Shown: piece after piece, positions 7,176-50,141 of the stretch
Layout: every line of letters starts with the position of its first letter
Numbering within the stretch: position 1 is the first letter of the stretch
Virus record (IMG/VR): IMGVR_UViG_3300033475_000008
Location: 27,441 to 91,440 of that record
Length of the DNA: 64,000 bases
Source: a virus
Strand: one strand, 5' to 3'
Notes under the pieces: model-generated
What the model was told of the DNA's origin: nothing
What the model saw: only the letters and a program-made list of their open reading frames with translations
The model's database searches: none
Made by a program: the position numbers and the translations under genes

Positions 7176-7583
7176 TCAGGAAGGGTAAATCATCTGATCT
7201 GTAGTCGTGCTGCTCAAGACGACAGGTGCGTATGAGCTGCTCAATGTTGCGTCTATTTCGAAGATCCATTGACGATGAATTTCAATCGCAGCTTGCGCTG
7301 CAGTTGTCGTTACTCCTAGGTTAGACACAGCAAGCGTGCACAATGAGTTCAACCATGTAGTCAGGTTAGCCTCATAGGTGTCTTGATCGAACCACGAGTA
7401 GTCGTACGTGATGTTGCCAGACTCATCGATCCCGGTATCGAACCCAACGCTCATGATCTGAGCATCTGCAAAACCACCGACATTTTGTCGCCCAGCAATA
7501 TCAGAGACAGGGGTCATTGTCACCGAATAGATGATCGTTGCGACATGCGTGCCATCCGGCAATGTGGGGAAGTGATTAGCCAT
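7176..7583 (-). CDS. Hypothetical protein, lower GC
   Basis: AAGGA RBS; lies in the operon after the tailspike. Confidence 0.6.
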   Translation of the reverse strand: MANHFPTLPDGTHVATIIYSVTMTPVSDIAGRQNVGGFADAQIMSVGFDTGIDESGNITYDYSWFDQDTYEANLTTWLNSLCTLAVSNLGVTTTAAQAAIEIHRQWIFEIDATLSSSYAPVVLSSTTTDQMIYPS

Positions 7584-12557: not shown

Positions 12558-15016
12558 TACATCTTCACCCGCAACCCACCAGAGGGGAATGTGACCGTGG
12601 CGGTGCGCTTGCCGATCTTCTGTACCAACATGTCGATGTCCTTGTCGGACATGTAGGTGCCGCCGCGGAAGTCGAAGATGGTGTCTCCACCAGCTGCTGA
12701 GCCAGCGCTGGCGGCACCGACCGCGAGTGAGGACCCGACACCCTGGAGACCGACGAGACTGGAGGTGACGGTGTGTCGACCTAGTACGTTGGCAGCGGCT
12801 TGGATGGCTCCGACGTTGTCGAGCATGCCCTTGGCGATACCGGCTGGGATGAACTTACCGACCTCGTCTGCCATGACCTGGGAGGGAGAGAAGATGGAGA
12901 GTACGTCCTTGAACGCGCCGACGATGGTGTTGCCAAGGCCACCGATGTTGCTGAGCAGGCCACCGACCGCGTCCTGGATGCCCTTCCAGAGGCCGTTGAT
13001 GATGTCCTTGCCGATGTTGAGCAACCAGGTGTTGGCCTTGATGAAGATGTTGAGGATCTTTCCCGGGACGCCCTTGATCCAGTTGATGGCGTCGTCCCAG
13101 GCCTCTGACACGTAGTGAGTGATCTGTGACCAGTACTTGTAGACCAACGCCGGGATGAGAAGGATGCCGCCCGAGAGGATGCCCAGGATGAGAGGGTACC
13201 ACCCTCGGATGATGTTCTCGACGTCCTTGACGGCGTCATCAAAGATCTTCGTGATGTCGTTCCAGAGACCCTTGAAGAACTTCTCAATGTCACCCCACAC
13301 GTCACGAGCCGTGTTGTTGATCCAGTGCCACGCGTCGAAGAAGTACTGCTTGATCTGGTCCCAGTGTGTGTAGATCAAGATGGCCAGGGCGACGATGGCG
13401 ATGGCGATGGCGATGAACGGGTTGGTGGCCATGATCAGGGTGAGGACCCTGAAGGCGGTGCCGATACCTTGGATGATGGTGATGACCTGCTTGACTGCCA
13501 TGAACGCGAGGATGGCACCGAGGATGTAGGGCAGAATCGGCTTGAGCTTGTCCAGGGGGCCGATGATCCAGTCCACGATGGCCGTGAAGATCTTGGCCGC
13601 GATCACGACGATCGGGGTGAGGGCTCTCACGATGGCTGTGAGAGGGCCGATCAGCGCGACCACACCTGGCAACAACCCGATAAACGCTTGGACCAAGGTA
13701 GGCAGGATCGGCAGCAGCGCGTTGAAGACTTGCACGAGAGCGCCGAGGATGGTGCTGGCGAGCAGCCCCAATGGCGGGATAAGCGGGATCAACGCGGTGG
13801 CCAACTCAGCGAACGCCGTGTTGAGAGAGTTGGCGACCACGTTGGCCACCTGAGCCACGAGCTTGAGGATGGGACCCAGTGCCGTCGCGATGGCAGAGAA
13901 GAGCGGTGAGAGCGCCTCAAGTGTCGTGTCAAAGTTGCTGAACGCGAGGACGATGCTCAACAGGGGGGTGATGAGCGGTGCCGCGGCCGTGAGGACCTTT
14001 CCGAAGGTCTCTGCCAGGGTGACGATGGTGCCAGCCAGGGGGCCGATGATGGGGGTGATGGCCTGCAGTACCGGCATGAGAGCGTTCCCGAAGGTCACGA
14101 TCATCTTGCCGACCGCGGGGACCAGGGTCCCGAGGATCACGTTGCTCAACGGTGCCAGGGCTGAGAGTAGCTTGCCGATGACCGGTAGGATCATGCCTAC
14201 CGTGTTGAACAAGGCGTTGAGTCCCTGGGCTGCCTGAGCGATGTTGAGGTTGGTGAAGAGACCAGCGAGTCCCTTGGCCAGGGTGACCAACCCGTTGCCC
14301 AGTGCGATGACCACGGGTAGCAAGCTCGGCATCATCTGAGACAGTGGTCTCACGAGTTGGTCTACGACGCCACCCAACGCGCCACCCAGGATGCCGACCA
14401 TGGGTGCCATGGCTTGACCGACGAGCGTGAGCTCAGGTGCCAGACTCTTGACGACGTTGAGGATCTCCGTAAACGCGCCCTTGGCTGCCTGGTCCACGGG
14501 GGCGAAGGCAGCGTTGAGTTCTTTCATCACCGGAAGGAGCTGCTTTTGCGTCGCGGTCAGTTGCTGCCCGCTGGCCTGGGCCTCCTTCAGTGACTTACTG
14601 AGAGCGGCGGCACCGATGGCCATGCCACCGAAGATGGCGAGTGGTCCCAGCGCGAGGAGACCAGCGAGAGGGCCAGAGAGGGCACCGGCAGCCAAGGCGA
14701 TGAGTCGGATCTTACCCGCGAGTTCACTGGCCTTCTCGCCAGTGCTGCTCATGGACTTGCCGTTGCTCTCGAGGTGCTTGCTGTTGTCGTCGAGGTTCCG
14801 ACCAAGAGTCTTGGTGGCCTCTGAGAGAGCCTCTGACTCAGCCGCGGTCTTCGCGAAGGACTCGTCGATCTTGTCACTGGCTGCGCTGATCTGAACCGAG
14901 GCCTTCTCCATCTCGGCCGACAGTTCTCTGATCTTTGACTCAAAGAGATCCAGAGACGCACTGGCGTTGTCTCTGGCTTCCATGACGATGAGAAGGGTGC
15001 TCTGCTCAGCAGACAT
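12557..15016 (-). CDS. Tape measure protein
   Basis: Long Ala/Leu helical protein with Trp-spaced repeats, the IFSPS motif, and the expected position. Confidence 0.9.
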   Translation of the reverse strand: MSAEQSTLLIVMEARDNASASLDLFESKIRELSAEMEKASVQISAASDKIDESFAKTAAESEALSEATKTLGRNLDDNSKHLESNGKSMSSTGEKASELAGKIRLIALAAGALSGPLAGLLALGPLAIFGGMAIGAAALSKSLKEAQASGQQLTATQKQLLPVMKELNAAFAPVDQAAKGAFTEILNVVKSLAPELTLVGQAMAPMVGILGGALGGVVDQLVRPLSQMMPSLLPVVIALGNGLVTLAKGLAGLFTNLNIAQAAQGLNALFNTVGMILPVIGKLLSALAPLSNVILGTLVPAVGKMIVTFGNALMPVLQAITPIIGPLAGTIVTLAETFGKVLTAAAPLITPLLSIVLAFSNFDTTLEALSPLFSAIATALGPILKLVAQVANVVANSLNTAFAELATALIPLIPPLGLLASTILGALVQVFNALLPILPTLVQAFIGLLPGVVALIGPLTAIVRALTPIVVIAAKIFTAIVDWIIGPLDKLKPILPYILGAILAFMAVKQVITIIQGIGTAFRVLTLIMATNPFIAIAIAIVALAILIYTHWDQIKQYFFDAWHWINNTARDVWGDIEKFFKGLWNDITKIFDDAVKDVENIIRGWYPLILGILSGGILLIPALVYKYWSQITHYVSEAWDDAINWIKGVPGKILNIFIKANTWLLNIGKDIINGLWKGIQDAVGGLLSNIGGLGNTIVGAFKDVLSIFSPSQVMADEVGKFIPAGIAKGMLDNVGAIQAAANVLGRHTVTSSLVGLQGVGSSLAVGAASAGSAAGGDTIFDFRGGTYMSDKDIDMLVQKIGKRTATVTFPSGGLRVKM

Positions 15017-27021: not shown

Positions 27022-27225
27022 TCACGCAGTGTCACTGGAGCCACTGCCGGTTTGAGCATTGTAGCGACGCATGAAGTCATCGGCCTCGTCAGCAGGAAGA
27101 GTAGTGTGGTCACCCTCGTAGACCGCGCTGAGTCGGTCCTTGAAGGCACCCTCAGCTTCCTCTTGCTTGACGTCCTCGTCTGGCTCAAGGTCGTCGTGCT
27201 CGTCTGGGGCCTGCTCGTCGCTCAT
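27022..27225 (-). CDS. Small acidic protein
   Basis: Coupled to the 1302-aa gene. Confidence 0.5.
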   Translation of the reverse strand: MSDEQAPDEHDDLEPDEDVKQEEAEGAFKDRLSAVYEGDHTTLPADEADDFMRRYNAQTGSGSSDTA

Positions 27226-30200
27226 GCCTGTCCGATCTTGTTGTACATGGTGTGGTTGCCATCAGACTTGCTGATACCGACGATGGTGATGTCAGCGCGG
27301 CGACGGCCATCTGACCCGACGACGTCACTGTTCACGTGGTACATGGTGCCTCGTTGCAAGAGGATCTCTGCCTCACTGCTGTAGTAGGAGACACCCTTCA
27401 CGTCCATGCCCTTGGCACCCTTTGGAGCGTGGATGGTGAGGAGGAGTCCCTTGCTGCCCCAGCCACCGAAGTTCTGTCCCACGTGTTCCTTGGTACTGGT
27501 GGACATGAAGGAGTGTTGCACGCCGACCTTGCCGACCTGACTACCGACGGGACCGAGCATGCCCTCACCGTCATTGATGCCACGGTGCAGGGTCATATCC
27601 TGAGTGAGCTCACTCTTGTCCAGGGCTGAGGTGAGGTTGTTGCCAGCCGTGTCACCGGTCTTCTGGTCGTGGTGAAGCTTGGCGAGCGCGACCTTCTTGT
27701 TGATGGTGCCGTACCAGCTACCGGTGTACTTCTTGACCGCGGCGAGTTCACCGGCACTCAGTGTCTCGTTGCCCAAGGTGGTGTGAACTGACTTGGGAAC
27801 GTGAACCGCCGCCGGTGCCACCGGAGTGAGGTTGACTTGTTGAGCGAGTGACGGCTTGGGCTTAGGTGCGCTCTCATCCTTGGCCAACTTGACGGCTTGC
27901 TGGTGAGCGTAGGCCAGTGAACCCTTGGCCTCCCACGAGTTGCTAACAGTCCAGGTGGCACCACTGTGAGCGTGTGTGACCGTGGCTGTGCCATCTGGGT
28001 TGGTCTTGATCGTGCCCAGGTGAGTGACCTGATCGGCTTGAGTGTCCCAGGGGTTGCTGTGATAGTCGACGTTGGCCACACCGGTAGTCGAGTCGACGGG
28101 ACCCACCATGGTCTTGTAGTTGTAACCAGGAGTGCCTGGGTCCAACTTGGCCAGTGCGCTGTCTGGGTCCTTCTTCACCACCTGGTGGATAGCCGTGGTC
28201 TGGTTGTGATAGTTGGCCAACTTGGCGACGGCTTCCTTCTTGGTGCTGGAGTTGGGAAGCTTGGTGCCGTCTTCGTGTTGAACCACCCAGGCGTTGTGCC
28301 AGTTCTTGCTGACCGTGCCGATCTGCTGCTTGCTGACCTTGTCGATGGCGGCGTGGGTGCCGTCTTGCTTGACTGAGACGTCGGTGGGCTTGACCGCGGT
28401 GCCGGCCTTGAGCCAGGCAGGCGGCGGTTCTGGAGCCGGTGCTGAGGGTACCGTTGCCGCGGGTGACGTTGACGGTGGAAGCTTGTCGATCTCATCGTTG
28501 TGATAGTTGATGAGAGCCTTCTTAGCGTGATAGACGTCACTGTAGGCCGGCAACGTCTTGCCACTGGCGTGTGTCGGTACCGCGCCACCGCTCACCGGGA
28601 GGTTGATTTCTCCGATGACGACGTTGTTGTGCGTGACCTTGTCTGACACGGTATTGTAGTGCGCGTCATCGCTGTAACTGATGTGACCGGCGGCGGCCCA
28701 CTCTGGTACTGGACTGACTGGTGTCTCAGCCGGTGCCGTCATTTCGGTGATGCCGGCGTACTTCTTGTTGTGGTACGCGGCCACGGCTTGTGAGGGTGAG
28801 TTGCCTACGCCTACCGGGACAGCAGTACTATCAGCGTGAGTAGCCGTATAGCCACCAGAATCGGGCTTGTAGTGACCCACCACGGTGCCTGTCGGCTTGT
28901 GGACAAGGTCACCGGCACCATCAGGGAAGACGTCCTTGGCGTTGATCGCGCCGAGCTTCTCGTAGTCCTTCTTCTCAGGTGTCGACGGTGGTGTCGGTGA
29001 TGAGGAACTCCCACTCAGTGAGTTGTGATACTCCGAGAGAGTGAGCTTGGCGTGTTGCGCTGCGCCGCCAGGGAGCACGGCACCGCTCGACGTGAAGTGC
29101 TTCACGTCAAGAACAGTCCCGTCCACGTGCTTGACTTGCTTGAAACTCGGCTTACCAGATGTGGGGATGGTCTCACCGATCTTCTTGCCGGTGGCGTCAT
29201 CCACGAAGTCCATGCTACCGGGCTCGTTACCTGGTACCAGTGTCATGCCAGCCGGTGTGACCTTAGCCGGGAGATCCAACTTGGGCTTCGGCTTGGGGAG
29301 TTCCACTGAGACTGCCGGTGCCTCTGGCTGAGCGACGTGTCCCTCCCCACCCTTCATCTTGGAGTTGTGGTGAAGAGCGATGCTGGCCAGGGCGTTGCCC
29401 TTGTAGACACCGGTGTGAGTGTGAGTGCCGTCAGCGTGGGTGGCCGTAAAGGTGCTGGTGCCCTTCTTCGGTGTGTCTGCTTGCTTGGCCAGGTGGCCGA
29501 CCACGGTTCCCGTGGGCTTGTGGACCACGTCGCCGTTCTTCTTGACACTGAGGTCCTGCGTGTTGATCTCACCACCGGCCTTGGCCCAGGGTGCAGTGGG
29601 GTGAGTGGCCGGGGTGGGAGCAGCGACCGTGGCACTCTGAGCGGGAGTGATCGGCTTGGCCATCTCGCCGGGTGCGGTCTTCTTAGCCGGGACCTTGACC
29701 GGTGTTGACGAGTCATGCGTGGTACCACCCACGGGGCTCTGCATGCCGTGAAGCTGCTCGTGGGCCTTGAGTTGTTCGTGGATGCTGTCGTAACCTTGAC
29801 CAGGGGTGGCGAAGTTCCGGGCCTGAGTGAGCTCGGTGTGAGCCTTCATCGCGTCACCACTTGCCAGGGCGTTGGCCGCGGCATGGAGGTGGTTGGCGGC
29901 ACTCGTGTCGCCCTGCTTGGTAGCGTGTTGAGCCAGGAGATGCAGGTTGTGATACTCGGCTACCGAGTCCACGGCCTCTTGGTGGGTCTGGTGCTTGGTC
30001 ATGAGCTTCATCTTGCCAGAGCCGATGACCGCGCCGTTGTGTTGTCCACTGAACGTGCCGTCCGCGTTCTTGCGGATACCACCGATCTGCTGACCACCGA
30101 CGTAGGTCTTGCCCTCCAGGTGCCCACCGTGGTAGATCTTGCCGTTCTTGGGGTCCCGCCAGGCCTTGGTGGTGCCGTGGCCACAGGGTGGCCGGACGCA

Positions 30201-31130
30201 GATGAACCCGTGGATGTATCCCTCTGGCCCGACCTTGAGGATCTGGACCGCGGGGACCTTCATCTTGCCAGTGTTGGTGGGCTTGCCCAGGGGGACGGTG
30301 GAGACGACCTCACCACCGACGTGGATGTTGAGGTGTGTGACCGGCACGTCCACCCAGGGCTGGGGCTCTGGTGCCTCACCACCGTACTTGAGAGTGACGT
30401 GTGGGGTGAAGTCCTGGTGCTCTGAGGCGTGGTACCTCTGCAGCTTCTGGCGCAGCACGTCCAGTGGCTCACCCTGGGTGAGCTCGTCAGTGGTGACGTG
30501 AGCGTAGTGGACGTCATCACCGCCACTGCTGGCTGAGGCCGGGAACCTGCCGAGGCCGCCGACCTGCATGGTGAAGGGCACAGTACCACGGGCTGCCTGC
30601 TGCACCGCCTGCTTGACCTCCTCGAGGAGGTCATCCGTGACGTTCTTACCGAGGTAGACTAGGGTGACATGGTGGTCGTCGACCCCGCCGTCCACGTCTT
30701 GGAGGGTGCCAGGTGTGAGGTCGATGCTGACCATGCCACTGCGCTTGGTGAGGCCAGGAACGGCGGCCTTGCCTCGAAGCTCCTTGGCGTGAGTGACTGG
30801 CCAGATACCCAGGGCATCGTGGTGTCGCTCTGCGCAGTAGCCCTTCGGGTCCTCCATGAACTTGCCGACGTGGCGGACGCAGCGGTCAAAGTCACCGGGC
30901 TCACCCCAGCGGACTTTCAGAGTGCCGCCCTTGCCGTGGGTCCAGTATCGGCGCAGGGTCTCCGCGTCACCGCCGTGCCCCTTGGCCTTGGTCACGTCCC
31001 CCTCTGGTGCCTGAGGGAGGCGTGACTTGCCCATGCCAGGCGACCAGGTGGCGCCGCGAGCCACGTCATAGAGGTCGTGGAGCCAGTCCCGGTTGACTGG
31101 GGACTCGTCCAGGTTGCCGAGGTCGATCAT
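27222..31130 (-). CDS. Multidomain virion effector: 2H phosphoesterase + 7 His-rich repeats + VIP2-like ADP-ribosyltransferase
   Basis: Two HVTL motifs; LHRG / FMSTS / SEAEILL (R-STS-ExE). Confidence 0.85.
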   Translation of the reverse strand: MIDLGNLDESPVNRDWLHDLYDVARGATWSPGMGKSRLPQAPEGDVTKAKGHGGDAETLRRYWTHGKGGTLKVRWGEPGDFDRCVRHVGKFMEDPKGYCAERHHDALGIWPVTHAKELRGKAAVPGLTKRSGMVSIDLTPGTLQDVDGGVDDHHVTLVYLGKNVTDDLLEEVKQAVQQAARGTVPFTMQVGGLGRFPASASSGGDDVHYAHVTTDELTQGEPLDVLRQKLQRYHASEHQDFTPHVTLKYGGEAPEPQPWVDVPVTHLNIHVGGEVVSTVPLGKPTNTGKMKVPAVQILKVGPEGYIHGFICVRPPCGHGTTKAWRDPKNGKIYHGGHLEGKTYVGGQQIGGIRKNADGTFSGQHNGAVIGSGKMKLMTKHQTHQEAVDSVAEYHNLHLLAQHATKQGDTSAANHLHAAANALASGDAMKAHTELTQARNFATPGQGYDSIHEQLKAHEQLHGMQSPVGGTTHDSSTPVKVPAKKTAPGEMAKPITPAQSATVAAPTPATHPTAPWAKAGGEINTQDLSVKKNGDVVHKPTGTVVGHLAKQADTPKKGTSTFTATHADGTHTHTGVYKGNALASIALHHNSKMKGGEGHVAQPEAPAVSVELPKPKPKLDLPAKVTPAGMTLVPGNEPGSMDFVDDATGKKIGETIPTSGKPSFKQVKHVDGTVLDVKHFTSSGAVLPGGAAQHAKLTLSEYHNSLSGSSSSPTPPSTPEKKDYEKLGAINAKDVFPDGAGDLVHKPTGTVVGHYKPDSGGYTATHADSTAVPVGVGNSPSQAVAAYHNKKYAGITEMTAPAETPVSPVPEWAAAGHISYSDDAHYNTVSDKVTHNNVVIGEINLPVSGGAVPTHASGKTLPAYSDVYHAKKALINYHNDEIDKLPPSTSPAATVPSAPAPEPPPAWLKAGTAVKPTDVSVKQDGTHAAIDKVSKQQIGTVSKNWHNAWVVQHEDGTKLPNSSTKKEAVAKLANYHNQTTAIHQVVKKDPDSALAKLDPGTPGYNYKTMVGPVDSTTGVANVDYHSNPWDTQADQVTHLGTIKTNPDGTATVTHAHSGATWTVSNSWEAKGSLAYAHQQAVKLAKDESAPKPKPSLAQQVNLTPVAPAAVHVPKSVHTTLGNETLSAGELAAVKKYTGSWYGTINKKVALAKLHHDQKTGDTAGNNLTSALDKSELTQDMTLHRGINDGEGMLGPVGSQVGKVGVQHSFMSTSTKEHVGQNFGGWGSKGLLLTIHAPKGAKGMDVKGVSYYSSEAEILLQRGTMYHVNSDVVGSDGRRRADITIVGISKSDGNHTMYNKIGQA

Positions 31131-40265: not shown

Positions 40266-40516
40266 ACCGAGGTTGGTCCAGTGAGGGTCTACCCGTGGTA
40301 GGTGAAGATCCCACGTTGTGGACGGTGACTGACGCGACTCGCCTACTGGGTCCGCCTCAGCTCACCCCGGCTCAGCTGCGGACTCGACTGCGAGTAGCAG
40401 GACTGGCACCAGTAGGGAAGAGACGAGTGACTGAGGCTGGCCACAGTGGTCGCCACGCCAGGGTGTACCCAGCCTCAGAGTTGATCGCCCTCTACGAGTC
40501 CTGGTCAGCGGACTGA
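40262..40516 (+). CDS. Small HTH DNA-binding protein
   Basis: WTVTDATRLL...GRHARVY. Confidence 0.6.
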   Translation: MNRGWSSEGLPVVGEDPTLWTVTDATRLLGPPQLTPAQLRTRLRVAGLAPVGKRRVTEAGHSGRHARVYPASELIALYESWSAD

Positions 40517-40710
40517 CCGTCTAGGAACCGCTGAAGCTCCTCGTCAGTGAGCCAGTGACTGGTCCGACGGAACCGGCGCAGGGTGCGTACCGCGTAGCGG
40601 TAAAACCCGCAAGAGGCCTCGTAGCCGAGGTTGGTGGTGAACACGACCATCCCGCAGAAGAAGGCAGCGAGGATGATCCCGATGATGACCCACTCTACAG
40701 CAGTGATCAT
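40492..40710 (-). CDS. Small membrane protein
   Basis: N-terminal TM segment. Confidence 0.5.
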   Translation of the reverse strand: MITAVEWVIIGIILAAFFCGMVVFTTNLGYEASCGFYRYAVRTLRRFRRTSHWLTDEELQRFLDGQSADQDS

Positions 40711-41324
40711 GAGTCCGGCTCCTCGTCCATCGTGGTGCCGGCGGTGGTCACGGGGATGAGACCCGTGGGTGCCTCGGTGTCACTGGCGTGTCTGGCCCGG
40801 TTGAGGATGGCACCGACCAGGGCGGGGACCACGGTCTCCTCGGCGTCAAGATCGTCACCGTCACGCCAGAGGTGCTGGACGTCGACCATGGCCGCGTGCT
40901 GGTTGCGACTGCTGCGCCGAGCGAGCATGGTCTCTCGCCACTGCCCCTGTTGACGCTTCTCCGCGAGGAGCTCTCGGAAGGTGCGGTCCAGGTCCTCCAG
41001 GAGCTCAGTCGCGATGGGGCCGAGCTCTCGAGTGTAGGGCCGCTCCAGGTGAGTGACCGGTCCCGGTTCATCAAACTGCTGCTGGAGTTCCTCCGCGGTC
41101 TCCAGGGTGGACTTGAGCTCTCGCAGAGCCAGTGACGTGGTGCGGTGACGAGACGCGAGGTCCACGTCACTGGGCTGCTGAGGTGCCGCGGGTCCCCAGT
41201 CAGGCTCGTCGTCGAAGAACGCGCTGTGCTCCGCGGAACTGAGGAGCGGTTTGTGTTCCTCGAACACCGGTCTGGTGGTACCATCGAGCCACGTCTGGTA
41301 CCACTTCTTCAATCGCTTCACCAT
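40707..41324 (-). CDS. Hypothetical protein
   Basis: GAGGAG RBS. Confidence 0.6.
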   Translation of the reverse strand: MVKRLKKWYQTWLDGTTRPVFEEHKPLLSSAEHSAFFDDEPDWGPAAPQQPSDVDLASRHRTTSLALRELKSTLETAEELQQQFDEPGPVTHLERPYTRELGPIATELLEDLDRTFRELLAEKRQQGQWRETMLARRSSRNQHAAMVDVQHLWRDGDDLDAEETVVPALVGAILNRARHASDTEAPTGLIPVTTAGTTMDEEPDS

Positions 41325-41357
41325 CGGGATCTCCTCACTCGGGTAGAACGGTGTGAC

Positions 41358-42158
41358 TTACACGGCGGTCGCGTCGAAGATGATCGACGTCGTCCCGGGA
41401 ACGAGTTGCAGGATCGCTCCACGACAACCGGCGATGAGGTCTGCCGGGATCTGAAGGGTCCCTGAACCGTCGGCAGGCAACCAATTGGTCTCCAGAACCT
41501 TTTGCGGTCCCTTGGCCATCGGAAGGGTGACCTTCAGGTGCGGCTGTCCCAGGCTGGAGTCGTAGTTGCATTGGATCACGTGACAGGACCCAGCGGGCCA
41601 CGTCAACCCAGCGCGACCGTTGATAGAGGTAGCTTGCATGTCGTTGTCCTTCTTGCTTGACGTTGGTGTCGACGCTGGTGGAGTGGGTGTCGGGTCCACG
41701 CCTGGCCAGTAGTCAGCGACGCTGGAGAGGTCCCAGTAGGTACTGGACTGGTACTGCTTGGCGACTGCCCCGGCAGGGATGGCGGTCTCACCGTCGTACT
41801 TGGCGACCCAGTAGTGGGGCTGGGGCACGTCGTGAGTGTCAAACGCGGCCTGGATAGCGGGCCACCCGGTCTGCGCGTTGGTCTGGTTGCAGTAGACCGT
41901 GGGGTCCATCCCAGCGTGACGCCGCAGCAGCACCCAGTTGACGGCGTCCTCTGGGCCGCAGTTGCCGGGCTCGCAGTCGAGGACGTGGCCGTCGTTGGTA
42001 GTGGGGTGCACCGCGATGCGCACCTTCACGCTGTGGGGGAAACGGGCCCAGTCCGCGGCAGACCAGGCGTAGTTGCCGTCCACGTAGCCAGCGACGAGTT
42101 GAGCGGTTACCGGGATGCGAGAGGCGTCTGAGTCGATGCCGTCATACATGGTCCTCAT
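41358..42158 (-). CDS. Endolysin, GH25-like muramidase fold plus C-terminal domain
   Basis: MYDG, AGYVDG, VLDCEPG, PTVYCN, YWVAKY, AKQY, WDLSSV; Pro/Thr linker. Confidence 0.75.
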   Translation of the reverse strand: MRTMYDGIDSDASRIPVTAQLVAGYVDGNYAWSAADWARFPHSVKVRIAVHPTTNDGHVLDCEPGNCGPEDAVNWVLLRRHAGMDPTVYCNQTNAQTGWPAIQAAFDTHDVPQPHYWVAKYDGETAIPAGAVAKQYQSSTYWDLSSVADYWPGVDPTPTPPASTPTSSKKDNDMQATSINGRAGLTWPAGSCHVIQCNYDSSLGQPHLKVTLPMAKGPQKVLETNWLPADGSGTLQIPADLIAGCRGAILQLVPGTTSIIFDATAV

Positions 42159-42260
42159 GGACGCTCTCCTCACGTGGATGCTGGCCCTACCGCGGGAAGA
42201 AAACGGTAGGGCCAGCGGTCTATGTGGACATCCTATCACGGAAGGATGCCTGGTGACAGG

Positions 42261-42662
42261 TCAGCAGTCGTCCTCGTCGTTGACGTCACCGGAGATGTCT
42301 TCGCAGTCCGCGCAGGTCGTGACCTGCTTGCCGTCTGCGTCGAACTCGTTGTCTGCCTCGAACTCGATGCCGCACTCGTCACACTCGATCATGGAGGGAC
42401 TGGCCTTACCGTAGACCGGCTTCTGGGACTTACCGACCCAGCCGTTCTCGTAGTGGGCCTGGGTCTCGGCGGCGTACGCCTTGCGGGCCTCGTCGATGTA
42501 GGGCTGCAGGAACTCGCGGAACGCCTGGTTCGCCGCGTCGTAAGCCGCGAACCCGAAGTAGTGGGCCCGAGTGGCATACATCTCCAAGAACTCCTCGCGC
42601 TGGGCCCGGAGGGCCAGCTGCTCGGCCCGGAACTTGATCCACTGTGCGCGGTTGAGCTTCAT
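42261..42662 (-). CDS. Zinc-ribbon hypothetical protein
   Basis: Promoter and leader identical to the DUF932 leader; CDEC..CADC. Confidence 0.7.
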   Translation of the reverse strand: MKLNRAQWIKFRAEQLALRAQREEFLEMYATRAHYFGFAAYDAANQAFREFLQPYIDEARKAYAAETQAHYENGWVGKSQKPVYGKASPSMIECDECGIEFEADNEFDADGKQVTTCADCEDISGDVNDEDDC

Positions 42663-42710
42663 GGTGGTCTCCTCAATCACTCGGCGCCAGCTCCCTGGCC
42701 TGTTGGGTAT

Positions 42711-42784
42711 AACCTATCACGGCGTGGCGTAGATGTAAACAGTCTCGTGGCTTTGTTTACACGAGTACGCACCCTATATAAGGT
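42711..42784. promoter_or_regulatory. Divergent promoter pair
   Basis: Minus strand TTTACA-17-TAGGTT (42739-42711); plus strand TTTACA-17-TAAGGT (42756-42784). Confidence 0.7.
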
Positions 42785-42815
42785 AGCCCCAGGAGTTGAG
42801 AGTGAGGAGAGAGTG

Positions 42816-43436
42816 ATGACCCTACAGATGAAGAGCGTGGAGCAGCTCCGAGCGCAGAGCTCTGTGACCGAGGAGGGACTGAGTCGCGGTCACCAGCTCG
42901 GTTTGACCACGGTGCAGGTGGAACTGCTGTCCCTCCTGACCGAGGGGATGAGCAACGTCGAGGCCGCGGAGCGCCTCGGCACCACCGTGGACAGCGTGAA
43001 GCACCGCCTCAAGGAGGTGTGCAAGCTCCTGGGGGTGCAGGGTGCCTCAGCAGGTGAGAGGCGAGCTCGAGCCGTGCTCACCAGTTGGCTGTTCGCGGCA
43101 GGGGTACTGCCTCGCCTCTCCCCGGGCAAGGACCCCATGTGGCGCCGCTACCTGACCAAGCGTGAGGCTGAGACCCTGCTGGGCCTGGCCGTGGGGAAGA
43201 GCAACGACGAGCTCTCTGAGTGGCTGAACATCACGGTGGGCACGGCGAAGACCCACGTCCAGTGGCTGATCAGAGTACTGGTGGCCCAGGAAAGAGTGCA
43301 CGCCGTACGCCGCGGCTTTGAGCTGGGTATGCTGGACGTGATCCGTCCAGAGGAATCTGGTGGTGAGTGGCTCGTGCGAGTCCGACGTCGTCGCGACGAG
43401 GGGTGGCTCGCTGAGTTGCCCCTGCCCGTGGCCTGA
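42816..43436 (+). CDS. Tandem LuxR-type HTH regulator
   Basis: Two LT..E...L..G.SN...A..L.....TVK.H motifs. Confidence 0.85.
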   Translation: MTLQMKSVEQLRAQSSVTEEGLSRGHQLGLTTVQVELLSLLTEGMSNVEAAERLGTTVDSVKHRLKEVCKLLGVQGASAGERRARAVLTSWLFAAGVLPRLSPGKDPMWRRYLTKREAETLLGLAVGKSNDELSEWLNITVGTAKTHVQWLIRVLVAQERVHAVRRGFELGMLDVIRPEESGGEWLVRVRRRRDEGWLAELPLPVA

Positions 43437-43441
43437 CGTTG

Positions 43442-43470
43442 TTTACATTGCTACACCACGGTGGTATGCT
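43442..43470 (+). promoter_or_regulatory. Promoter (TTTACA-17-TATGCT)
   Basis: Motif family member. Confidence 0.7.
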
Positions 43471-43524
43471 GTTACCAGTATAGAGTGAGATGAGTGAGTG
43501 ATGAGACTGAGATGAGGAGATCAC

Positions 43525-44532
43525 ATGTCAGCGCGAGGAGCGATGCTCGGTCTGGCCTACGGTGACTGCCTGGGTGGCCCCGTGGAGTTCAGCACGGAGA
43601 AGAAGGCCAGGAAGGTGTATGGCCGCAAGTTGAACCGGTGGTCCCTGCCCCGGAACGGGCGAGTCACCGACGACACGCAGATGGCTCTGGCCGTGGGTGA
43701 GGCCGTGGGTGAGGCACTGTACGTCAAGGACACCTCAGTTCACTACGTGATGGACCAGCTCGTGAACGAGCTCATCACGTGGTACCTGTCCCCGGACAAC
43801 ACCTATGACCGGGCACCCGGCGGGACCTGCATGACCGCGTGCCGGAAGCTCACGGAGGGTCACCACTGGCTCGCCTCCACGGACCCACATTCCAAGGGCT
43901 GCGGGGCCAACATGCGAGTCGCCCCGGTGGGTCTCGTGGACAGTCTCTCTGTGGAGCACCGCAGTGGGATCGCGCAGTTGCAGGCCGCGATGACCCACGG
44001 TCACCCCACGGCGTTGATCGCGTCTGACGTGACCCAGCAGGCCGTGTGGCTGCTCAACCACGGCACGGCACCGAGGCAGCTCCTCGTGGAGCTGATGGAC
44101 TACTGTCACAGCCGGTTGGGCCAGTACCACGAGGCGTGGCTCGGCCCCCTGTGGCGAGCAGGCAACCACTTCAGCAACCCGAACGGCTACGTCAACGCCG
44201 GTTGGTACGAGGTGCACAACGCCCTGGTGAAGGTGAACCGGGCACTGAAGAAGCCGCACCTGATGAAGCTGGACCCGAGCCTGGTCACCGGTGAGGGTTG
44301 GGTCGCCGAAGAGTGCCTGGCCACGGCGCTGTACTGCTTCCTGCAGTACCCGGATGACCCGATGAAGGCTCTGCACCGGTCACTGCTCACCAAGGGTGAC
44401 ACGGACAGCCTGGCCGCGATGACCGGCACGTTCGTCGGTGCCTACCACGGTGAGGGAGCGTTCCCGAAGGCGTGGCAGGAGCGGATCGAGTACCAGCGGC
44501 GGCTTCTCCGAGTCGCTGACCAGCTGAGTTGA
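43525..44532 (+). CDS. ADP-ribosylglycohydrolase (DraG/ARH family)
   Basis: GLAYGDCLG.PVE, TDDTQM, GCGANMR.APVG, THGHP and GDTDS motifs. Confidence 0.93.
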   Translation: MSARGAMLGLAYGDCLGGPVEFSTEKKARKVYGRKLNRWSLPRNGRVTDDTQMALAVGEAVGEALYVKDTSVHYVMDQLVNELITWYLSPDNTYDRAPGGTCMTACRKLTEGHHWLASTDPHSKGCGANMRVAPVGLVDSLSVEHRSGIAQLQAAMTHGHPTALIASDVTQQAVWLLNHGTAPRQLLVELMDYCHSRLGQYHEAWLGPLWRAGNHFSNPNGYVNAGWYEVHNALVKVNRALKKPHLMKLDPSLVTGEGWVAEECLATALYCFLQYPDDPMKALHRSLLTKGDTDSLAAMTGTFVGAYHGEGAFPKAWQERIEYQRRLLRVADQLS

Positions 44533-44566
44533 GGAAAGACCGTGACACGACGCAGCGCTCACAGTG

Positions 44567-44595
44567 TTTACATTGTGAGCGCTGCGTGATATATT
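44567..44595 (+). promoter_or_regulatory. Promoter (TTTACA-17-TATATT)
   Basis: Motif family member. Confidence 0.7.
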
Positions 44596-44638
44596 GGTTC
44601 TACCAGCACAGTGGTGGTGGAGAGACGAGGAGACTGAG

Positions 44639-45112
44639 ATGACTGACGAAGAGACGCTCAAGAAGCTCATCGAGGACGAGATGATCGCCGTCGTGGTTGA
44701 CTCGCTCTCTCACGAGCTGACGGTCTACATCCTCACTGACGTCCTGCACGGCGACTGCGTGGTTGCCGCCAAGGTCGCCTCATGGCACCCGATGCACCGC
44801 CTGATCGTGAACCAGGTCAACAGCGGCGTGCTCGAGATCACCGAGGGTGACGGTACCAAGGTCGCCGCTGACGGTGAGGTCGACTACGCGGACTCCCTGC
44901 GTTACGTCCAGAGTGAGAACACGACGTGTGAGAAGATCATCCTCAAGTGCGAGATGGAGGGTCTCTCCAACTGCACCGGCGTGAACGTCCGACTCCGCGT
45001 GAACGAGTACAACCGCGTCTTCCACGGTGACGAGGACGAGCGCCTCATCTGCGACGGCTGTGACGAGGAGCTCAAGCACCTGGTCAAGACTGACGGTGAG
45101 ATCGGAGAGTAA
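44639..45112 (+). CDS. Hypothetical acidic Cys-containing protein
   Basis: GAGGAG RBS after the promoter. Confidence 0.65.
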   Translation: MTDEETLKKLIEDEMIAVVVDSLSHELTVYILTDVLHGDCVVAAKVASWHPMHRLIVNQVNSGVLEITEGDGTKVAADGEVDYADSLRYVQSENTTCEKIILKCEMEGLSNCTGVNVRLRVNEYNRVFHGDEDERLICDGCDEELKHLVKTDGEIGE

Positions 45113-45117
45113 CTGAC

Positions 45118-45273
45118 ATGCTGCAGCGACGAGCCACGTGGATCAACGGCGTGCACCGCGCCGGCAAGCGCAAGGTCTGCCGCTGTGGTGACCACCGCCA
45201 CGGCACCGGCGCCCAAGAGCGCCGGCGGGCCCGGCGTCGCGAGGACCGCACCTGGCGCCGAGAGGGAGAGTGA
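45118..45273 (+). CDS. 51-aa Arg-rich peptide (absent from the ORF track)
   Basis: Hand translation MLQRRATWING...CRCGDH...RRRARRREDRTWRR; fills the operon gap. Confidence 0.5.
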   Translation: MLQRRATWINGVHRAGKRKVCRCGDHRHGTGAQERRRARRREDRTWRREGE

Positions 45274-45686
45274 GCGAGATGACGTGGAAGGACGAGTACG
45301 TCAAGGCGATGACAGCGTTCATGCTGCGACACGGTGAGGTCATGGGTACCTATGTTCGAGACGAACACAGTGAGTCCATGCGGGACCACGTCAACGACGT
45401 GAAGATCCGTAAGCACCTGTCTCACGACAACGCCACGGTGCATGAGATGAAGGAATCCAGGTGGGAACAGGGTGGTGACACCTTCACCGAGGGCACCGAC
45501 ATGAACGGGATCGACCTGATCGTCTCATGTGACTGCGGTGAGGTGGACCACCGGCGCATCCGGTACGAGGGCTCCGTGGGAGAGATCCTGATTGGGATCT
45601 TCATGGAGGAGATGGATACCACGACCTGCAAGGGGTGCACTGGAACGTGCTGCACCGGGGTGGGAAGCGACCCCTGCACCTGCTGA
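45270..45686 (+). CDS. Hypothetical Cys-rich protein
   Basis: Coupled gene followed by a hairpin at 45694-45728. Confidence 0.6.
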   Translation: MSEMTWKDEYVKAMTAFMLRHGEVMGTYVRDEHSESMRDHVNDVKIRKHLSHDNATVHEMKESRWEQGGDTFTEGTDMNGIDLIVSCDCGEVDHRRIRYEGSVGEILIGIFMEEMDTTTCKGCTGTCCTGVGSDPCTC

Positions 45687-45740
45687 GATCACAACGAGAG
45701 CCGGCACCGTTTAGGCGCCGGCTCTCGTCATGTGTGAAGC

Positions 45741-46034
45741 TCAGGCCTGCTGCTCGTCCTCGGCTGGGGTCTCCTCGGCCGGAGCAACCGGTGCCTCGGT
45801 CTCTTCAGCTGGTGCCTCTTCAGCTGGCGGGGCGGTCTCAGTGGTAGCCGAGGGGGACACGCTCACCGGGGTGTCTGCCAGGGCCACGACGGCCTGACCG
45901 GCCAGCTCCTGCACGGCCTGGACGACGGTCTCCCCGGCCTCTCGAACGATGGGCTCCTCGTGCTGAAGCAGGGACCGAGCCGCGGTCTCGATGCGCTGCA
46001 GCAGGGCGTCAAAGTACTCGCCAGTTCGTGACAT
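45741..46034 (-). CDS. Hypothetical protein with acidic tail
   Basis: GGAGG RBS; promoter TGGACA-16-TATATT at 46100-46073. Confidence 0.6.
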   Translation of the reverse strand: MSRTGEYFDALLQRIETAARSLLQHEEPIVREAGETVVQAVQELAGQAVVALADTPVSVSPSATTETAPPAEEAPAEETEAPVAPAEETPAEDEQQA

Positions 46035-46240
46035 GGATCCTCCGGGACGTCGTATCGTGGTGTCTGGTAACCAATATATCCCACCGTTAAACGGTGTCCA
46101 CGCTGGCTGCCAGGGTCAGTTGGCAGGGCACCTGACCGTGGCGACCCGGGTCGGTACTGAGACGGTGGCCGCGGTAGCGGGAATCGTGACCGGGGTGAGC
46201 GGCGACAAGGTGGGAACCGTGACCACGGCCTGGAGGTAAC

Positions 46241-46606
46241 TCACGGTTGAGCGACCTGGTTGACCACGAACCCACCGTACACCCAGCACGTGGCCAGTGC
46301 CGGGTCAGTGGGATCTGCCCAGAGAGCGTGAGCGTAGACAGCTCGCTGAGTCAGCGTCGCCGTGGCTGCCGGGTAGAGGGTGACCGTGACCGTAGACGCG
46401 TTGAGGTCCACGGTCACGACGCCCTGAGCGTTGGGGGTCTCGTTGACGGTGATGACCGCGGCACTGCTGAGGTCACTGGCATCTCGTCGGACCACGTACT
46501 CCCAGGTCAAGCCGGTGAGCGGGTAGAGCGACCCGTCCGTGTCCTCCAAGGTGAAGACGGCGGTGTTGCTACTCCCGCTCTGGATCGTCCAGTTGACCTG
46601 ACCCAC
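46241..46606 (-). CDS. Ig-like / BppU-N-like protein
   Basis: IQSG...FTL.D.DG...LTG...GVVTV...L.P..TA.L pattern. Confidence 0.55.
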   Translation of the reverse strand: MGQVNWTIQSGSSNTAVFTLEDTDGSLYPLTGLTWEYVVRRDASDLSSAAVITVNETPNAQGVVTVDLNASTVTVTLYPAATATLTQRAVYAHALWADPTDPALATCWVYGGFVVNQVAQP

Positions 46607-46614
46607 TGACTCCC

Positions 46615-46776
46615 CTAGATGCTGGCGTTGAACTGAGCGACGACGACTCGTTGAGTCTCGTCGACAGGGAGCACGTGCTGCAGCTGCCCCGTGATGACCT
46701 CGACGCCCTGGCTGGCCACGAGGGCCAGGTCCAGGGAGCGGTTGTCGGTGACGCCCTTGACGACGGTGTCCTTCAC
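46615..46776 (-). CDS. FxSxx-COOH (FxsA-like) RiPP-precursor-like peptide 2
   Basis: MKDTVVKGVTDNRSLDLALVASQG...LQHVLPV...VAQFNASI*. Confidence 0.6.
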   Translation of the reverse strand: MKDTVVKGVTDNRSLDLALVASQGVEVITGQLQHVLPVDETQRVVVAQFNASI

Positions 46777-46800
46777 TCTTCTCTTCTTTCTCTCAGTCAC

Positions 46801-46965
46801 TCAGATGCTGGACCCGAAGGCGCACACTGGAAGGTGCACGTCCTCGACGGGAAGAACACGCCGTAGTGAGGTCCAGTCACCGCGCTGAGCGAGCTCAGTG
46901 AGGGTAAGCGGAGCGGTGTCAGTGACACCCTTCACGACGACTGGTGTCGGCAGTTGCGAGTCCAT
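46801..46965 (-). CDS. FxSxx-COOH (FxsA-like) RiPP-precursor-like peptide 1 (absent from the ORF track)
   Basis: MDSQLPTPVVVKGVTDTAPLTLTELAQRGDWTSLRRVLPVEDVHLPVCAFGSSI*. Confidence 0.65.
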   Translation of the reverse strand: MDSQLPTPVVVKGVTDTAPLTLTELAQRGDWTSLRRVLPVEDVHLPVCAFGSSI

Positions 46966-46968
46966 GAG

Positions 46969-47181
46969 TCAGTCTACCTCTTTGCCAGTAGGGTTGGCAG
47001 GTGCCCCAACCAGGGCTGCCTCAGCGGCAGTTACGCTGGTCCGAGTGACCTCAGCCAGCTGGTTGACGGCCTGGCTGAGTCGCTGGTAGGCCAAGCGCTG
47101 TTGTTCAAACGTGGGAGCGATGCTGTGCCGGTGAAACGCCCACACCACCTCTACAGCACGACGCCTCTCTTCATCATTCAC
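46969..47181 (-). CDS. Hypothetical protein
   Basis: Coupled in operon. Confidence 0.5.
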   Translation of the reverse strand: MNDEERRRAVEVVWAFHRHSIAPTFEQQRLAYQRLSQAVNQLAEVTRTSVTAAEAALVGAPANPTGKEVD

Positions 47182-47330
47182 GGCTTTCGCATCCCGAAAC
47201 CGAAGGGCTTGGGTGCCGCACCGGGTTCTGGCTTCCGAGTCACGATGGTGGTCGTGACCTCTTGCACCAGGTTGCCGTGGTCGTCGTACTCTCGGTACGT
47301 GGTCTCGGTCTTGGTGATCTCGTCAGGCAT
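47178..47330 (-). CDS. 50-aa peptide (absent from the ORF track)
   Basis: GGAGG RBS; MPDEITKTETTYREYDDHGNL...PKPFGFGMRKP*. Confidence 0.55.
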   Translation of the reverse strand: MPDEITKTETTYREYDDHGNLVQEVTTTIVTRKPEPGAAPKPFGFGMRKP

Positions 47331-48039
47331 CGATGCCTCCTCTCGTGATCAAATTGCGGAGTCGCTGACCCGTGCTGGGTGGGTCCTCGTCTGGTGACGT
47401 GTAGTCAGGGTCATCTCGTGGCGAGACACTCAGCTCTCGACATCGTGAGTCAGCTTGTGCTGCCACGTGATCGTGTTGGAGTCGAGTGATCTCACCTTGG
47501 GCGAAGGCGATGTGGCAGTCAGAGAGGATCTTTGTCACGTCATTCAGCTTGGTGGCTCTCTCCAGTTGGTTTGTCAGTGACGTGTACCACCCTGTCGGGT
47601 CAAAGTGAAGTGGTGGGTTACCGTCAGCGTCATAGCCCAGTTTGAAGAGCTCCCGGTGAAGTTCTCTCGCTGCCTCTGCTCGGTTGCCACCGTGGATCAC
47701 GATCCCAGTGGGGTGGTGTCTTACCGAGTAGGTGGCTTGTCGGGTGAGTGAACTGGTCTCCATGGACCAGGTGACGTGTTCCGCAGGCAGCCTCAATCGA
47801 GGCAGTTGATCCTCCACTGGCTTCGGTGGGGGTGGCACGTAGGGAGCCACGTGGAACCACGTGACCCGCTCTCGAGGGATCGCCAGTTGAGTGTCGTCAC
47901 TTCCTGTGACCACCAACCACGCGGCACCCAACTCATGCCGGACACCCTGCACGACGGTCTGCGTGATGCGACCGTTGCTCTCGTGTTTGATCGTGTACTC
48001 GTAGACTTTAGACAGTGGGCCCAGGTACATCAAACTCAC
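47323..48039 (-). CDS. Hypothetical protein
   Basis: Coupled in operon. Confidence 0.55.
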   Translation of the reverse strand: MSLMYLGPLSKVYEYTIKHESNGRITQTVVQGVRHELGAAWLVVTGSDDTQLAIPRERVTWFHVAPYVPPPPKPVEDQLPRLRLPAEHVTWSMETSSLTRQATYSVRHHPTGIVIHGGNRAEAARELHRELFKLGYDADGNPPLHFDPTGWYTSLTNQLERATKLNDVTKILSDCHIAFAQGEITRLQHDHVAAQADSRCRELSVSPRDDPDYTSPDEDPPSTGQRLRNLITRGGIDA

Positions 48040-48229
48040 CTGCCTTCACGCCCTGCAGAAAAGTCTCCCACTCTGCCGAGGTGAACTCCAACACGGGACC
48101 GTGGTGTGTACCACCGGGGCTCGTGTACTTACCGTCACGGACCTGCACACCCAGTTGAGTCACGCGGACCTCCACACAAGTCGCAGCGTTTGGGCAGGTG
48201 CTGGCAGCGCGCCACTCCTCAGTCGTCAT
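48008..48229 (-). CDS. DUF397 (BldB-like) protein
   Basis: WRAAS.C...CVEV...VRDGK...PVLEF...EW..FL.GVKAGEFD. Confidence 0.85.
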   Translation of the reverse strand: MTTEEWRAASTCPNAATCVEVRVTQLGVQVRDGKYTSPGGTHHGPVLEFTSAEWETFLQGVKAGEFDVPGPTV

Positions 48230-48629
48230 CCTCGTCCTCGTCTTGAAGGTCACCGCTGTGGTAGAGAGGCGGTTCCTCTTCTGTGACACAGAGTCGCTGA
48301 CGCAGCCGATCAATGATCTTGTCGACCTCGGCGTCAGGGAGCACGGCGTTGCCGTGGAACTCAAAGGTGACCACGTCACCCTGCTCGATCCGCAGTCGAG
48401 TACGCAGCTCTTCCACCAAGTCACCCAGGCGTTGAACCTCAGTCTCCAACCAGCGGTTGTTGTCTAAGGCGCGACTGAGCTCAGCGACTGAGTTCTCGTG
48501 CTCAGCGACCGCGCCCTTGAGGTCGCTCTGCCGAATGATGGTCATGGGCTGCCCAAAGCCGTGACCCATCTGCGTCTCGTCGTTAGCCAGGTTCCGGAGT
48601 CGTTGGTGGTAGTCGACCGGGTCAGTCAC
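48219..48629 (-). CDS. Coiled-coil hypothetical protein
   Basis: GGAGG RBS. Confidence 0.55.
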   Translation of the reverse strand: MTDPVDYHQRLRNLANDETQMGHGFGQPMTIIRQSDLKGAVAEHENSVAELSRALDNNRWLETEVQRLGDLVEELRTRLRIEQGDVVTFEFHGNAVLPDAEVDKIIDRLRQRLCVTEEEPPLYHSGDLQDEDEDDD

Positions 48630-48812
48630 GTCTTGTCCTCCAGGAGGTAGGTTCCCATGGCGGTGCGCTTGACACCTAGTTGCTCCTTGAGGTCACTGAG
48701 CTCACCCTCATGACTGATGATCAAAGCTGCCTGCTCGTCGGTGAGTTCCTTGAGGAACCACAGGAACATGAGCTCCTCGTAGAGCCAAACGAGGCGCAAC
48801 CACGCCTCCTGG

Positions 48813-49064
48813 TCACTGGGCACGGTACACGTTCTCCGCCCACTGGTAGCCGCAGTTGACACAGGTGCGCTCCTGGAACTCCGTGACGTTCTCGTCGAGG
48901 CCGTAGCTCTCCCTGAGGAGCAACAGGTAGTGGTTGCCCCACTTGTCGATCTCGTCCTCGTTCTCACGAGGGGTGAGGTCCCGATACGTGGTCTTCTGTC
49001 GATCCAGGACCCCGCACTTCACGCAGCGACACGCCACACCGCTGTATGCCTTCAGTTCATTCAC
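48813..49064 (-). CDS. Zinc-ribbon protein
   Basis: CVKCG...CVNCGYQW. Confidence 0.6.
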   Translation of the reverse strand: MNELKAYSGVACRCVKCGVLDRQKTTYRDLTPRENEDEIDKWGNHYLLLLRESYGLDENVTEFQERTCVNCGYQWAENVYRAQ

Positions 49065-49429
49065 TGTTCATCCTCCACGTCGTCATCTCTTCTTCTCCAC
49101 GTCACGTCAAGCGGTGGCACGTCAGGGTCCACGTTCTCTCGGGCCAGTGACACACTGACCACGTTGCCGTGGTCGAGTGGATGAGTGACCCCCAGTGCCG
49201 CGTAGCGATGATCCTTCAACCACGTGGCACTCACCTCCACGGAGTCGATCAACATCCCCGTGACCAGGATCGCACCACCTTCACCCCGACTCAATGTGGC
49301 TCGGCCCACGACTTGTCCAAAGTTCACCGTGAGAGGGACCGCACCTTCTGGCAGTGTCCACTCCTGGTCACCAGGGTGTGATCCTGGGAGGTGCGCCACC
49401 CCCTGGAAGGTGACCTCGTCCTCGTTCAC
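49061..49429 (-). CDS. Hypothetical protein
   Basis: Coupled in operon. Confidence 0.5.
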   Translation of the reverse strand: MNEDEVTFQGVAHLPGSHPGDQEWTLPEGAVPLTVNFGQVVGRATLSRGEGGAILVTGMLIDSVEVSATWLKDHRYAALGVTHPLDHGNVVSVSLARENVDPDVPPLDVTWRRRDDDVEDEQ

Positions 49430-49935
49430 TCGTCTTCCTCTGGGTCACCGAACGTCTCAGCAAGCTGAGCTGCTGCCTCACCCCAGTAGCAGAGGGCGTG
49501 GAATCGCAGACCGTGTGACGCGGCGATCTCGTCTAGCTCCGTCAGCGAGTCAACGTCAACCGTCAACTCGTCAAGTGGGTCCATGTTGACCAGGAACGGT
49601 TGAAGCTCCTCATAGATGTGACAACACACCAGCTCACCGCGGATCTGAGCTGCGATGCCCTGCCGTTGCTCGTCGAGAAGCTGCTTTTTACTGGGACCAT
49701 TGGGCAAGATCTGAATCCGATGCTTCCACGCCGGGTCACTGACGATCGCGTTCAACTCCTCCTGAGCAACTTGGAGCTCCTCAGCGCTGACGTTGCCGAC
49801 GTAGTTGAACTCCGTGAGTCGGCCCTCAGCGTTGAAGCCAGGTTCCAGCCTGCCGGTACCGATGACGTTGCCGTCCTTGTCTGTGATCTGCGCTGAGCCG
49901 CCCCAGTTGACTGGAGCGTCTCTGTCACTCGCCAT
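49426..49935 (-). CDS. Hypothetical protein
   Basis: GAGGAGG RBS. Confidence 0.55.
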   Translation of the reverse strand: MASDRDAPVNWGGSAQITDKDGNVIGTGRLEPGFNAEGRLTEFNYVGNVSAEELQVAQEELNAIVSDPAWKHRIQILPNGPSKKQLLDEQRQGIAAQIRGELVCCHIYEELQPFLVNMDPLDELTVDVDSLTELDEIAASHGLRFHALCYWGEAAAQLAETFGDPEEDE

Positions 49936-50141
49936 ACTGGCTTCCTCCTCTTCCGATGTTGCGCAGCCCGGTCAGATACAGCGCCATCTCACGAGTATGG
50001 CAGGTGGCGATGTCCACCACCTCGTTGTCAACCACGGCCACCACGTCCCAACCAGCAACACTGCGCTGGATGCGCCAGGGCTCAGAGCTGACTACCGCGT
50101 CTCGCGAGTTCTCGTTCAAGTGCTCCAGATACTCCGTGTAA

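Follow-up and report, generated by a model that had tools for sequence, protein, structure and literature searches.

The peptide genes and the phage that carries them

Two short genes, which we call pepA and pepB, lie side by side on the minus strand at positions 46615–46965 of the window, that is, of the whole 64,000-nucleotide stretch of DNA that was analysed. The window covers bases 27441–91440 of a linear, 91,440-bp IMG/VR record. A reading of the sequence alone had picked out two adjacent, paralogous open reading frames of 53–54 aa at this place, ending in VCAFGSSI and VAQFNASI. Both frames are intact, the two endings are those of pepA and pepB respectively, and the motifs that the two were said to share are present in each. 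The features of the region, in window coordinates, are as follows.

46801–46965, minus strand: pepA, 54 aa, ATG start, stop TGA; Cys-type core ..LPVCAFGSSI-COOH, in which Phe50-Gly-Ser52 forms the FxS motif
46615–46776, minus strand: pepB, 53 aa, GTG start, stop TAG; Ala-type core ..RVVVAQFNASI-COOH
46969–47181, minus strand: 70-aa open reading frame without a known family, directly upstream of pepA
46241–46606, minus strand: 121-aa gene, phrog_1084 (function unknown), directly downstream of pepB
47323–48424, minus strand: a 238-aa gene of unknown family and the gene for a 138-aa DUF397 protein (48008–48424), upstream in the same leftward block
40400–50000: variable accessory region upstream of the terminase gene, which houses the peptide genes; compared with 36 related viral loci

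The two peptides are 43% identical (BLASTP E 2e-7), with VVKGVTD, L.L, A..G, L..VLPV and F..SI as the positions common to both, and pepB carries an alanine where the cross-linked serine sits in the family described below. The genes are embedded in an operon and closely packed against their neighbours. The ATG of pepA follows 3 nt after the stop of the 70-aa frame, its stop adjoins the pepB region, and between the stop of pepB and the GTG of the next gene there are 8 nt containing GGGAG. An alternative GTG at 46800 would lengthen pepB to 61 aa; the GTG given above has a purine-rich stretch 5′ of it, and the public gene call (P0003) is the 53-aa form. In composition the genes resemble the rest of the phage. 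Their overall GC is 62–65%, equal to the phage mean, their GC3 values are 0.69 and 0.85 against a phage mean of 0.76, and the GC at the three codon positions fits that of coding sequence.

The record comes from soil, has a GC content of 61.5% and is estimated by CheckV to be 89% complete. Its description as a phage is well founded, as it encodes a portal, a large terminase, a head-protease/ART polyprotein, a primase-helicase and a polynucleotide kinase, which make it a tailed phage. The nearest relatives of the terminase are those of Streptomyces phage TurkishDelight (53% identity) and Actinoplanes phage phiAsp2 (49.5%). The DUF397 gene (PF04149, E 1.7e-12), which has no adjoining XRE-type partner, belongs to a family known from filamentous actinomycetes. 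From the terminase neighbours and the DUF397 gene together we infer that the host range lies amongst the filamentous actinobacteria. The phage looks lytic, as searches of its record for tyrosine and large serine recombinases found none. Of the genes in the accessory region, at approximately 40.4–50 kb, all but two lack a homologue in the 36 related viral loci, which were compared up to 10 kb from the terminase; the exceptions are the 121-aa gene and a gene of 169 aa.

Two genes of the window are connected with ADP-ribosylation. An ADP-ribosylglycohydrolase gene (43525–44532, plus strand) lies 2 kb from the peptide genes, and the 1302-aa head-module protein (27222–31130, minus strand) ends in an ART domain. 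The triceptide minviopeptin is ADP-ribosylated by an ART of its own cluster (PMC12912966).

Relationship to the FxsA precursors

FxsA precursors (TIGR04268, NF040585, PF27839) are the substrates of FxsB-type radical SAM/SPASM cyclophane synthases. In the characterised FxsB-type enzyme MscB, C4 of a phenylalanine at position i is joined to the C-beta of a serine at i+2 (PMC11002830). The phage peptides are like these precursors in length (approximately 50–60 aa), in their leader motifs and in the V-x-x-F-x-S-x-I-COOH core, and can be aligned with them from end to end. They differ in being encoded by a phage, in having no FxsB, HExxH hydroxylase, FxsC or recognisable FxsT gene next to them and in scoring below the curated cut-off; in addition, pepB has alanine at the serine position and pepA belongs to a cysteine-containing subtype, VCAF.

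Scoring of both peptides with the FxSxx-COOH model, proposed earlier as a check on the resemblance, gave a divided answer. The curated NCBIfam cut-off for TIGR04268 is 28 bits. pepA falls below this with 15.6 bits (E 0.015), yet TIGR04268 is still its best match amongst 18,950 families, the second best in NCBIfam being the SjiA model NF040585 (SjiA_fam_FXSXX). pepB has no NCBIfam match, and a search of the phage's own record with the TIGR04268 profile returned nothing at E ≤ 10.

Other profile searches connect both peptides with the family. A profile made from pepA and pepB only retrieved 28 small proteins of 53–77 aa at E ≤ 1e-3 from 1.84 billion representative proteins. Apart from the truncated P0018, the alignment of each of these extends through its C-terminal residue, with an ending that is F-x-S-S-I or close to it, and TIGR04268 is matched by 20 of the 29 aligned sequences, with a best E of 1.4e-8. 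A wider profile brought in 177 proteins, most of them with a precomputed Pfam label PF27839 and many named by NCBI as ‘FxSxx-COOH cyclophane-containing RiPP peptide’, from Kitasatospora, Streptosporangium, Microbispora, Actinocrinis and others. When 91 of the PF27839-labelled proteins were made into a profile, pepB reached 47.8 bits with it (E 8e-14) and pepA 36.3 bits (E 3e-10), whereas of the 1024 ORFs in the six frames of the phage the next best had 6.1 bits; no phage peptide is inside this profile, but its members were retrieved with one that included pepA and pepB, so that it leans towards this sub-branch. Both alignments span the peptides from leader to C-terminus. The proposed resemblance to the FxsA precursors is well beyond chance, and pepA and pepB are very probably FxsA-family homologues, that is, precursors of the FxSxx-COOH cyclophane RiPP type. 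Three large repeat proteins of 1593–5253 aa (P0002, P0008 and P0009), which also came up in the search with the two-peptide profile, were judged to be spurious; through a repeated ..QQGNWM.RGSLPNSLPAEVSQLDVC.. unit they match positions 25–51 of the profile, a part of the leader, many times over.

The C-terminus of pepA, F-G-S-S-I, has the FxSxx-COOH form, and in that of pepB, F-N-A-S-I, the serine is shifted by one. FNASI is also the ending of P0203, a metagenomic ‘FXSXX-COOH protein’ labelled PF27839, which makes the pepB ending a natural variant of the family and no invention of the phage. The earlier suggestion of two variants, FxS and FxA, agrees with the two subtypes that can be told apart in a tree; the FxA form is not peculiar to the phage.

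The best relatives of pepA are of the Cys type and end in VCAF[GA]SSI (P0006, 67% identity; P0004, 66%), and those of pepB form the Ala-type P0007 cluster, named ‘FXSXX-COOH protein’ by JGI, with 49–51% identity. Since each peptide is closer to these outside relatives than the 43% by which pepA and pepB agree with one another, the pair did not arise by a recent duplication. In a maximum-likelihood tree, which is based on few columns and leaves most other forks open, pepA groups with P0004, P0006 and P0031 in a Cys-type clade with support of 95/86, and pepB falls outside it. Judged by the identities and the tree, pepA and pepB represent two old subtypes. The Cys subtype of pepA turned up in metagenomic and viral data only: as a DNA pattern, VCAF[GA]SSI followed by a stop produced nothing beyond chance matches in 185,579 species genomes, and of its 19 matches in metagenomes two were real.

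Tandem arrangement of such genes is known from bacteria as well as from the phage. In an Actinospica MAG, P0017 and P0028 stand under neighbouring locus tags. Viral tandem pairs of FxsA-like genes occur in two further records, G028 and G031, and P0004 and P0030, both listed with one 74,374-bp Logan contig, are probably another pair, though the evidence for this is circumstantial.

Many relatives share with the phage peptides a low score on the curated model. JGI-named FXSXX-COOH relatives, many of them metagenomic, also score only 19–26 bits on TIGR04268, and P0004, P0006 and P0019, the nearest relatives of pepA, do not match it. By these scores the sub-branch is only marginally covered by the curated models. 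The nearest relative whose surroundings can be read is P0019, a Cys-type peptide encoded on the metagenome contig L053 (Ga0335072_10002699) at 11629–11829, minus strand, where its gene is the first in a series of small unknown genes. No radical SAM gene was found in the 14 kb of this contig that were examined. Also on the contig are an O-like replication initiator (2385–3644) and a TROVE/Ro60-like protein (12461–14173), a second contig, L050, is a rearranged variant of it, and L053 looks like a prophage or other mobile element.

The scores below the cut-off, together with the nearest relatives that do not match TIGR04268, mean that the sub-branch might not be a substrate of FxsB. The peptides could then be descendants of FxsA that now act unmodified on a target outside the Fxs system, as small early phage proteins that keep an ancestral frame. 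The lack of a maturase near P0019 and the loss of the cross-linked serine from pepB would fit this. However, the leader motifs and the F-x-S/A-S-I-COOH core are in register with those of the labelled members, and likewise so in unrelated phage lineages, which is what selection for recognition by an enzyme of the family would preserve, and the FNASI ending of pepB is found in the labelled P0203. We consider such an unmodified function quite unlikely.

Maturase genes and the occurrence of FxsA-like genes in other phages

In the window no radical SAM gene had been seen, and this holds for the whole of the 91,440-bp record, where neither TIGR04269 (FxsB) nor PF04055 (radical SAM) has a match. The same models matched 13 of 14 (TIGR04269) and 14 of 14 (PF04055) control genomes. 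The HExxH hydroxylase (TIGR04267) and TIR_2 are also without a match in the whole record, their controls being matched as expected. When the record was assessed as a possible Fxs locus, there was therefore neither an FxsB adjacent to the precursors nor a companion gene (HExxH hydroxylase, TIR). Within a record that is 89% complete, pepA and pepB are orphan precursors.

The record being linear and 89% complete, an FxsB-type maturase could be imagined in the ~11% of the genome that it does not cover, in which case the phage would own a self-contained RiPP cassette. In such a cassette the precursor would adjoin its enzyme, yet on both flanks of the peptide genes there are small unrelated genes. 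Moreover, three other FxsA-bearing viral records, described below, are 96–100% complete, one of them a relative of the phage with terminal repeats, and have no radical SAM gene. A cassette of this kind is highly improbable.

These records were found by searching IMG/VR with DNA patterns for the C-terminus plus the stop codon. FxsA-like ORFs are present in eight further records (loci and records L091/G023, L127/G024, L139/G026, L141/G027, L142/G028, L143/G029, L144/G030 and L145/G031), and a ninth, L138/G025, is borderline at 12.3 bits. The search of other phages for orphan fxsA genes, proposed earlier as a check, thus found them in IMG/VR; in 50,697 records of cultured phages there was no match to pepA, pepB or a canonical FxsA of Kitasatospora. 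Plasmids likewise gave no match. No radical SAM gene was found in the FxsA-bearing IMG/VR records, the most complete of which are G027 (100%, 113 kb, with direct terminal repeats), G026 (100%) and G029 (96%).

Some of the carriers are related to the phage and others are not. By terminase identity the relatives are G030 (62%) and G027 (56%). In G030, a record of 108,000 bp, the FxsA-like gene has the same orientation as the terminase and lies 7.7 kb upstream of it, in a place equivalent to that in the phage, though its neighbours are unrelated to those in the phage and its subtype is different. The region at 40400–50000 is almost entirely peculiar to the phage amongst 36 relatives, and its equivalent in G030 also has an FxsA-like gene, which suggests a hot spot of gene turnover. 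The terminase of G023 is only 28% identical to that of the phage and G024 has no matching terminase, so at least three phage lineages carry FxsA-like genes. The flanks in L091 and L127 hold genes of phage type (tRNA-His guanylyltransferase, RNase H, polynucleotide kinase). In G031 the tandem pair (L147, ~7030–7406) is placed between tRNA-Val and tRNA-Arg, within a cluster of 36 tRNA genes. This cluster spans ~4500–13450 of L147 (G031:24000–38000) and includes most anticodon families.

The 121-aa gene downstream of pepB was considered as a specific partner of the peptides and rejected, as its homologues also occur in relatives that have no FxsA; it is probably no specific partner. One homologue, 52% identical (E 1e-40), is encoded in the unrelated, FxsA-bearing G031 (L147:60–422, plus strand), 6.4 kb from the FxsA pair and directly before a 1104-aa gene, and this link between the gene and FxsA is probably coincidental. 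Another lies 4 kb downstream of the terminase in L004, which has no FxsA.

A further group of pattern matches was rejected as FxsA. A stretch shared by a dozen unrelated IMG/VR contigs (L070, L071, L073, L075, L080, L087, L088, L111, L113, L122, L126 and L134) scores at most 7 bits with the HMM. It is near-identical at the DNA level, happens to translate as ..RAETRRSLPSVIKK.YFLR.AFNSSI-stop and represents a conserved DNA element outside the FxsA family.

Not every relative of the phage has such genes. Amongst 22 related IMG/VR records reached through their terminases, none has an FxsA-like ORF; as a positive control, the same search of the phage's own record returned exactly pepA and pepB. This patchiness, and the position of the genes in a hypervariable region that has no counterpart in 36 relatives, would be expected if host fxsA genes had been captured in the variable region and were carried as passengers without function. 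Against this, both frames are uninterrupted, with the composition of the phage and not that of FxsA-bearing contigs, which have 67–70% GC. In addition, two old subtypes have both been maintained, and genes of this kind have been acquired and kept by several unrelated phage lineages. Carriage as mere passenger DNA therefore seems very unlikely to us. From the intact, tightly packed frames, the phage-like GC and the two old subtypes, a long residence in the phage and a function are likely.

Possible roles of the phage peptides

By their profile matches, pepA and pepB extend a known family by two new and divergent peptides, and their setting, that of orphan precursors kept by phages, is new as well. 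In the literature searched, no paper describing phage-borne FxsA genes was found. For the bacterial loci, a computational study describes FxsC as an active, NAD-degrading TIR protein and FxsT as a ParA NTPase with an inactive TIR domain, and predicts that the two make up a TIR-ParA suicide-type antiviral system of multicellular actinobacteria (bioRxiv 10.64898/2026.10.19.760177). FxsT had been taken in the sequence-only reading to be an NTPase-TPR protein; beside the description in that study this is too simple. The peptide produced by FxsAB is suggested in the same work to be an antiviral molecule or a diffusible alarm signal (bioRxiv 10.64898/2026.10.19.760177). The system occurs in Actinomycetota of multicellular habit, which matches the host range inferred for the phage. 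Its antiviral role is a prediction, and the phage encodes only the peptide component.

We tentatively favour, at somewhat short of an even chance, a reading in which pepA and pepB depend on the FxsB of the host and interfere with its Fxs-linked TIR-ParA loci. The peptides would need host FxsB, in a host that owns an Fxs locus, and the conserved leader GVTD..L..LA...L+xVLP would dock them on this radical SAM/SPASM enzyme. With its F-G-S sequence pepA could be cross-linked like a native substrate. Because alanine takes the place of the cross-linked serine, pepB may bind and be left unprocessed, as a poor or dead-end substrate. If overproduced, such look-alike precursors might flood, starve, jam, counterfeit or redirect the FxsAB peptide pathway of the host, and the predicted suicide or alarm response of the linked FxsC and FxsT (TIR-ParA) might be blunted or steered as a result.

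Interference with the host is supported by the recurrence of orphan copies in related and unrelated phages, all of them without a radical SAM gene. It is weakened in that P0019, a near relative on the mobile-element-like contig L053, also has no radical SAM gene in 14 kb, in that the phage record is 89% complete and in that the antiviral role of Fxs is itself a prediction. The more specific proposal goes further, namely that the orphan FxsA of actinophages is a counter-defence in which host FxsB would turn one modifiable and one unmodifiable look-alike into antagonists or competitors of the Fxs TIR-ParA peptide. This we regard as possible though rather doubtful. The context that speaks to it consists of the variable early region in which the genes lie, the recurrence in unrelated phages and the immune role predicted for the host system.

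Host FxsB might also mature the peptides for some other use by the phage, with the product serving as an arbitrium-like signal, an exclusion factor or a weapon against other phages or neighbouring bacteria. The same evidence of identity, orphan state and recurrence applies here, and the alternative view offered in the preprint, that the peptide is a diffusible signal, would suit such a use (bioRxiv 10.64898/2026.10.19.760177). The tandem pair of G031, within its array of 36 tRNA genes, stands amongst genes of host takeover and not beside known anti-defence genes. However, genes for a receptor, an exporter or a protease are absent beside the peptides of the phage, whose neighbours are small and, DUF397 apart, without known families. 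A signal for the choice between lysis and lysogeny would have no obvious use, since no integrase was found. Another use of a matured product appears fairly unlikely.

Phages are known to counter host defences by sequestering or degrading immune signals, as do Tad1 and Tad2 or Acb1 and Acb2, and the arbitrium system is a case of signalling by phage peptides. The likeness of pepA and pepB to these is conceptual only, in that a small product would meddle in the small-molecule or peptide language of the host. There is no relation in sequence or structure, and the phage peptides would differ in being a substrate or mimic for a host enzyme.

Fxs loci are widespread in filamentous actinobacteria, and the sole proposal for their biological role, that of a TIR-ParA suicide system with a modified peptide, is computational. 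That several unrelated phage lineages, including ones represented by complete genomes, have kept the precursor and never the enzyme is the pattern expected if a phage exploits or sabotages a pathway of its host. This pattern offers a simple genetic handle, in which the presence or absence of the peptide genes can be set against that of the fxs locus in the host. If the counter-defence reading were true, phages would here be seen for the first time to use mimicry of a RiPP precursor against host immunity, which would also provide genetic evidence that Fxs loci are antiviral.
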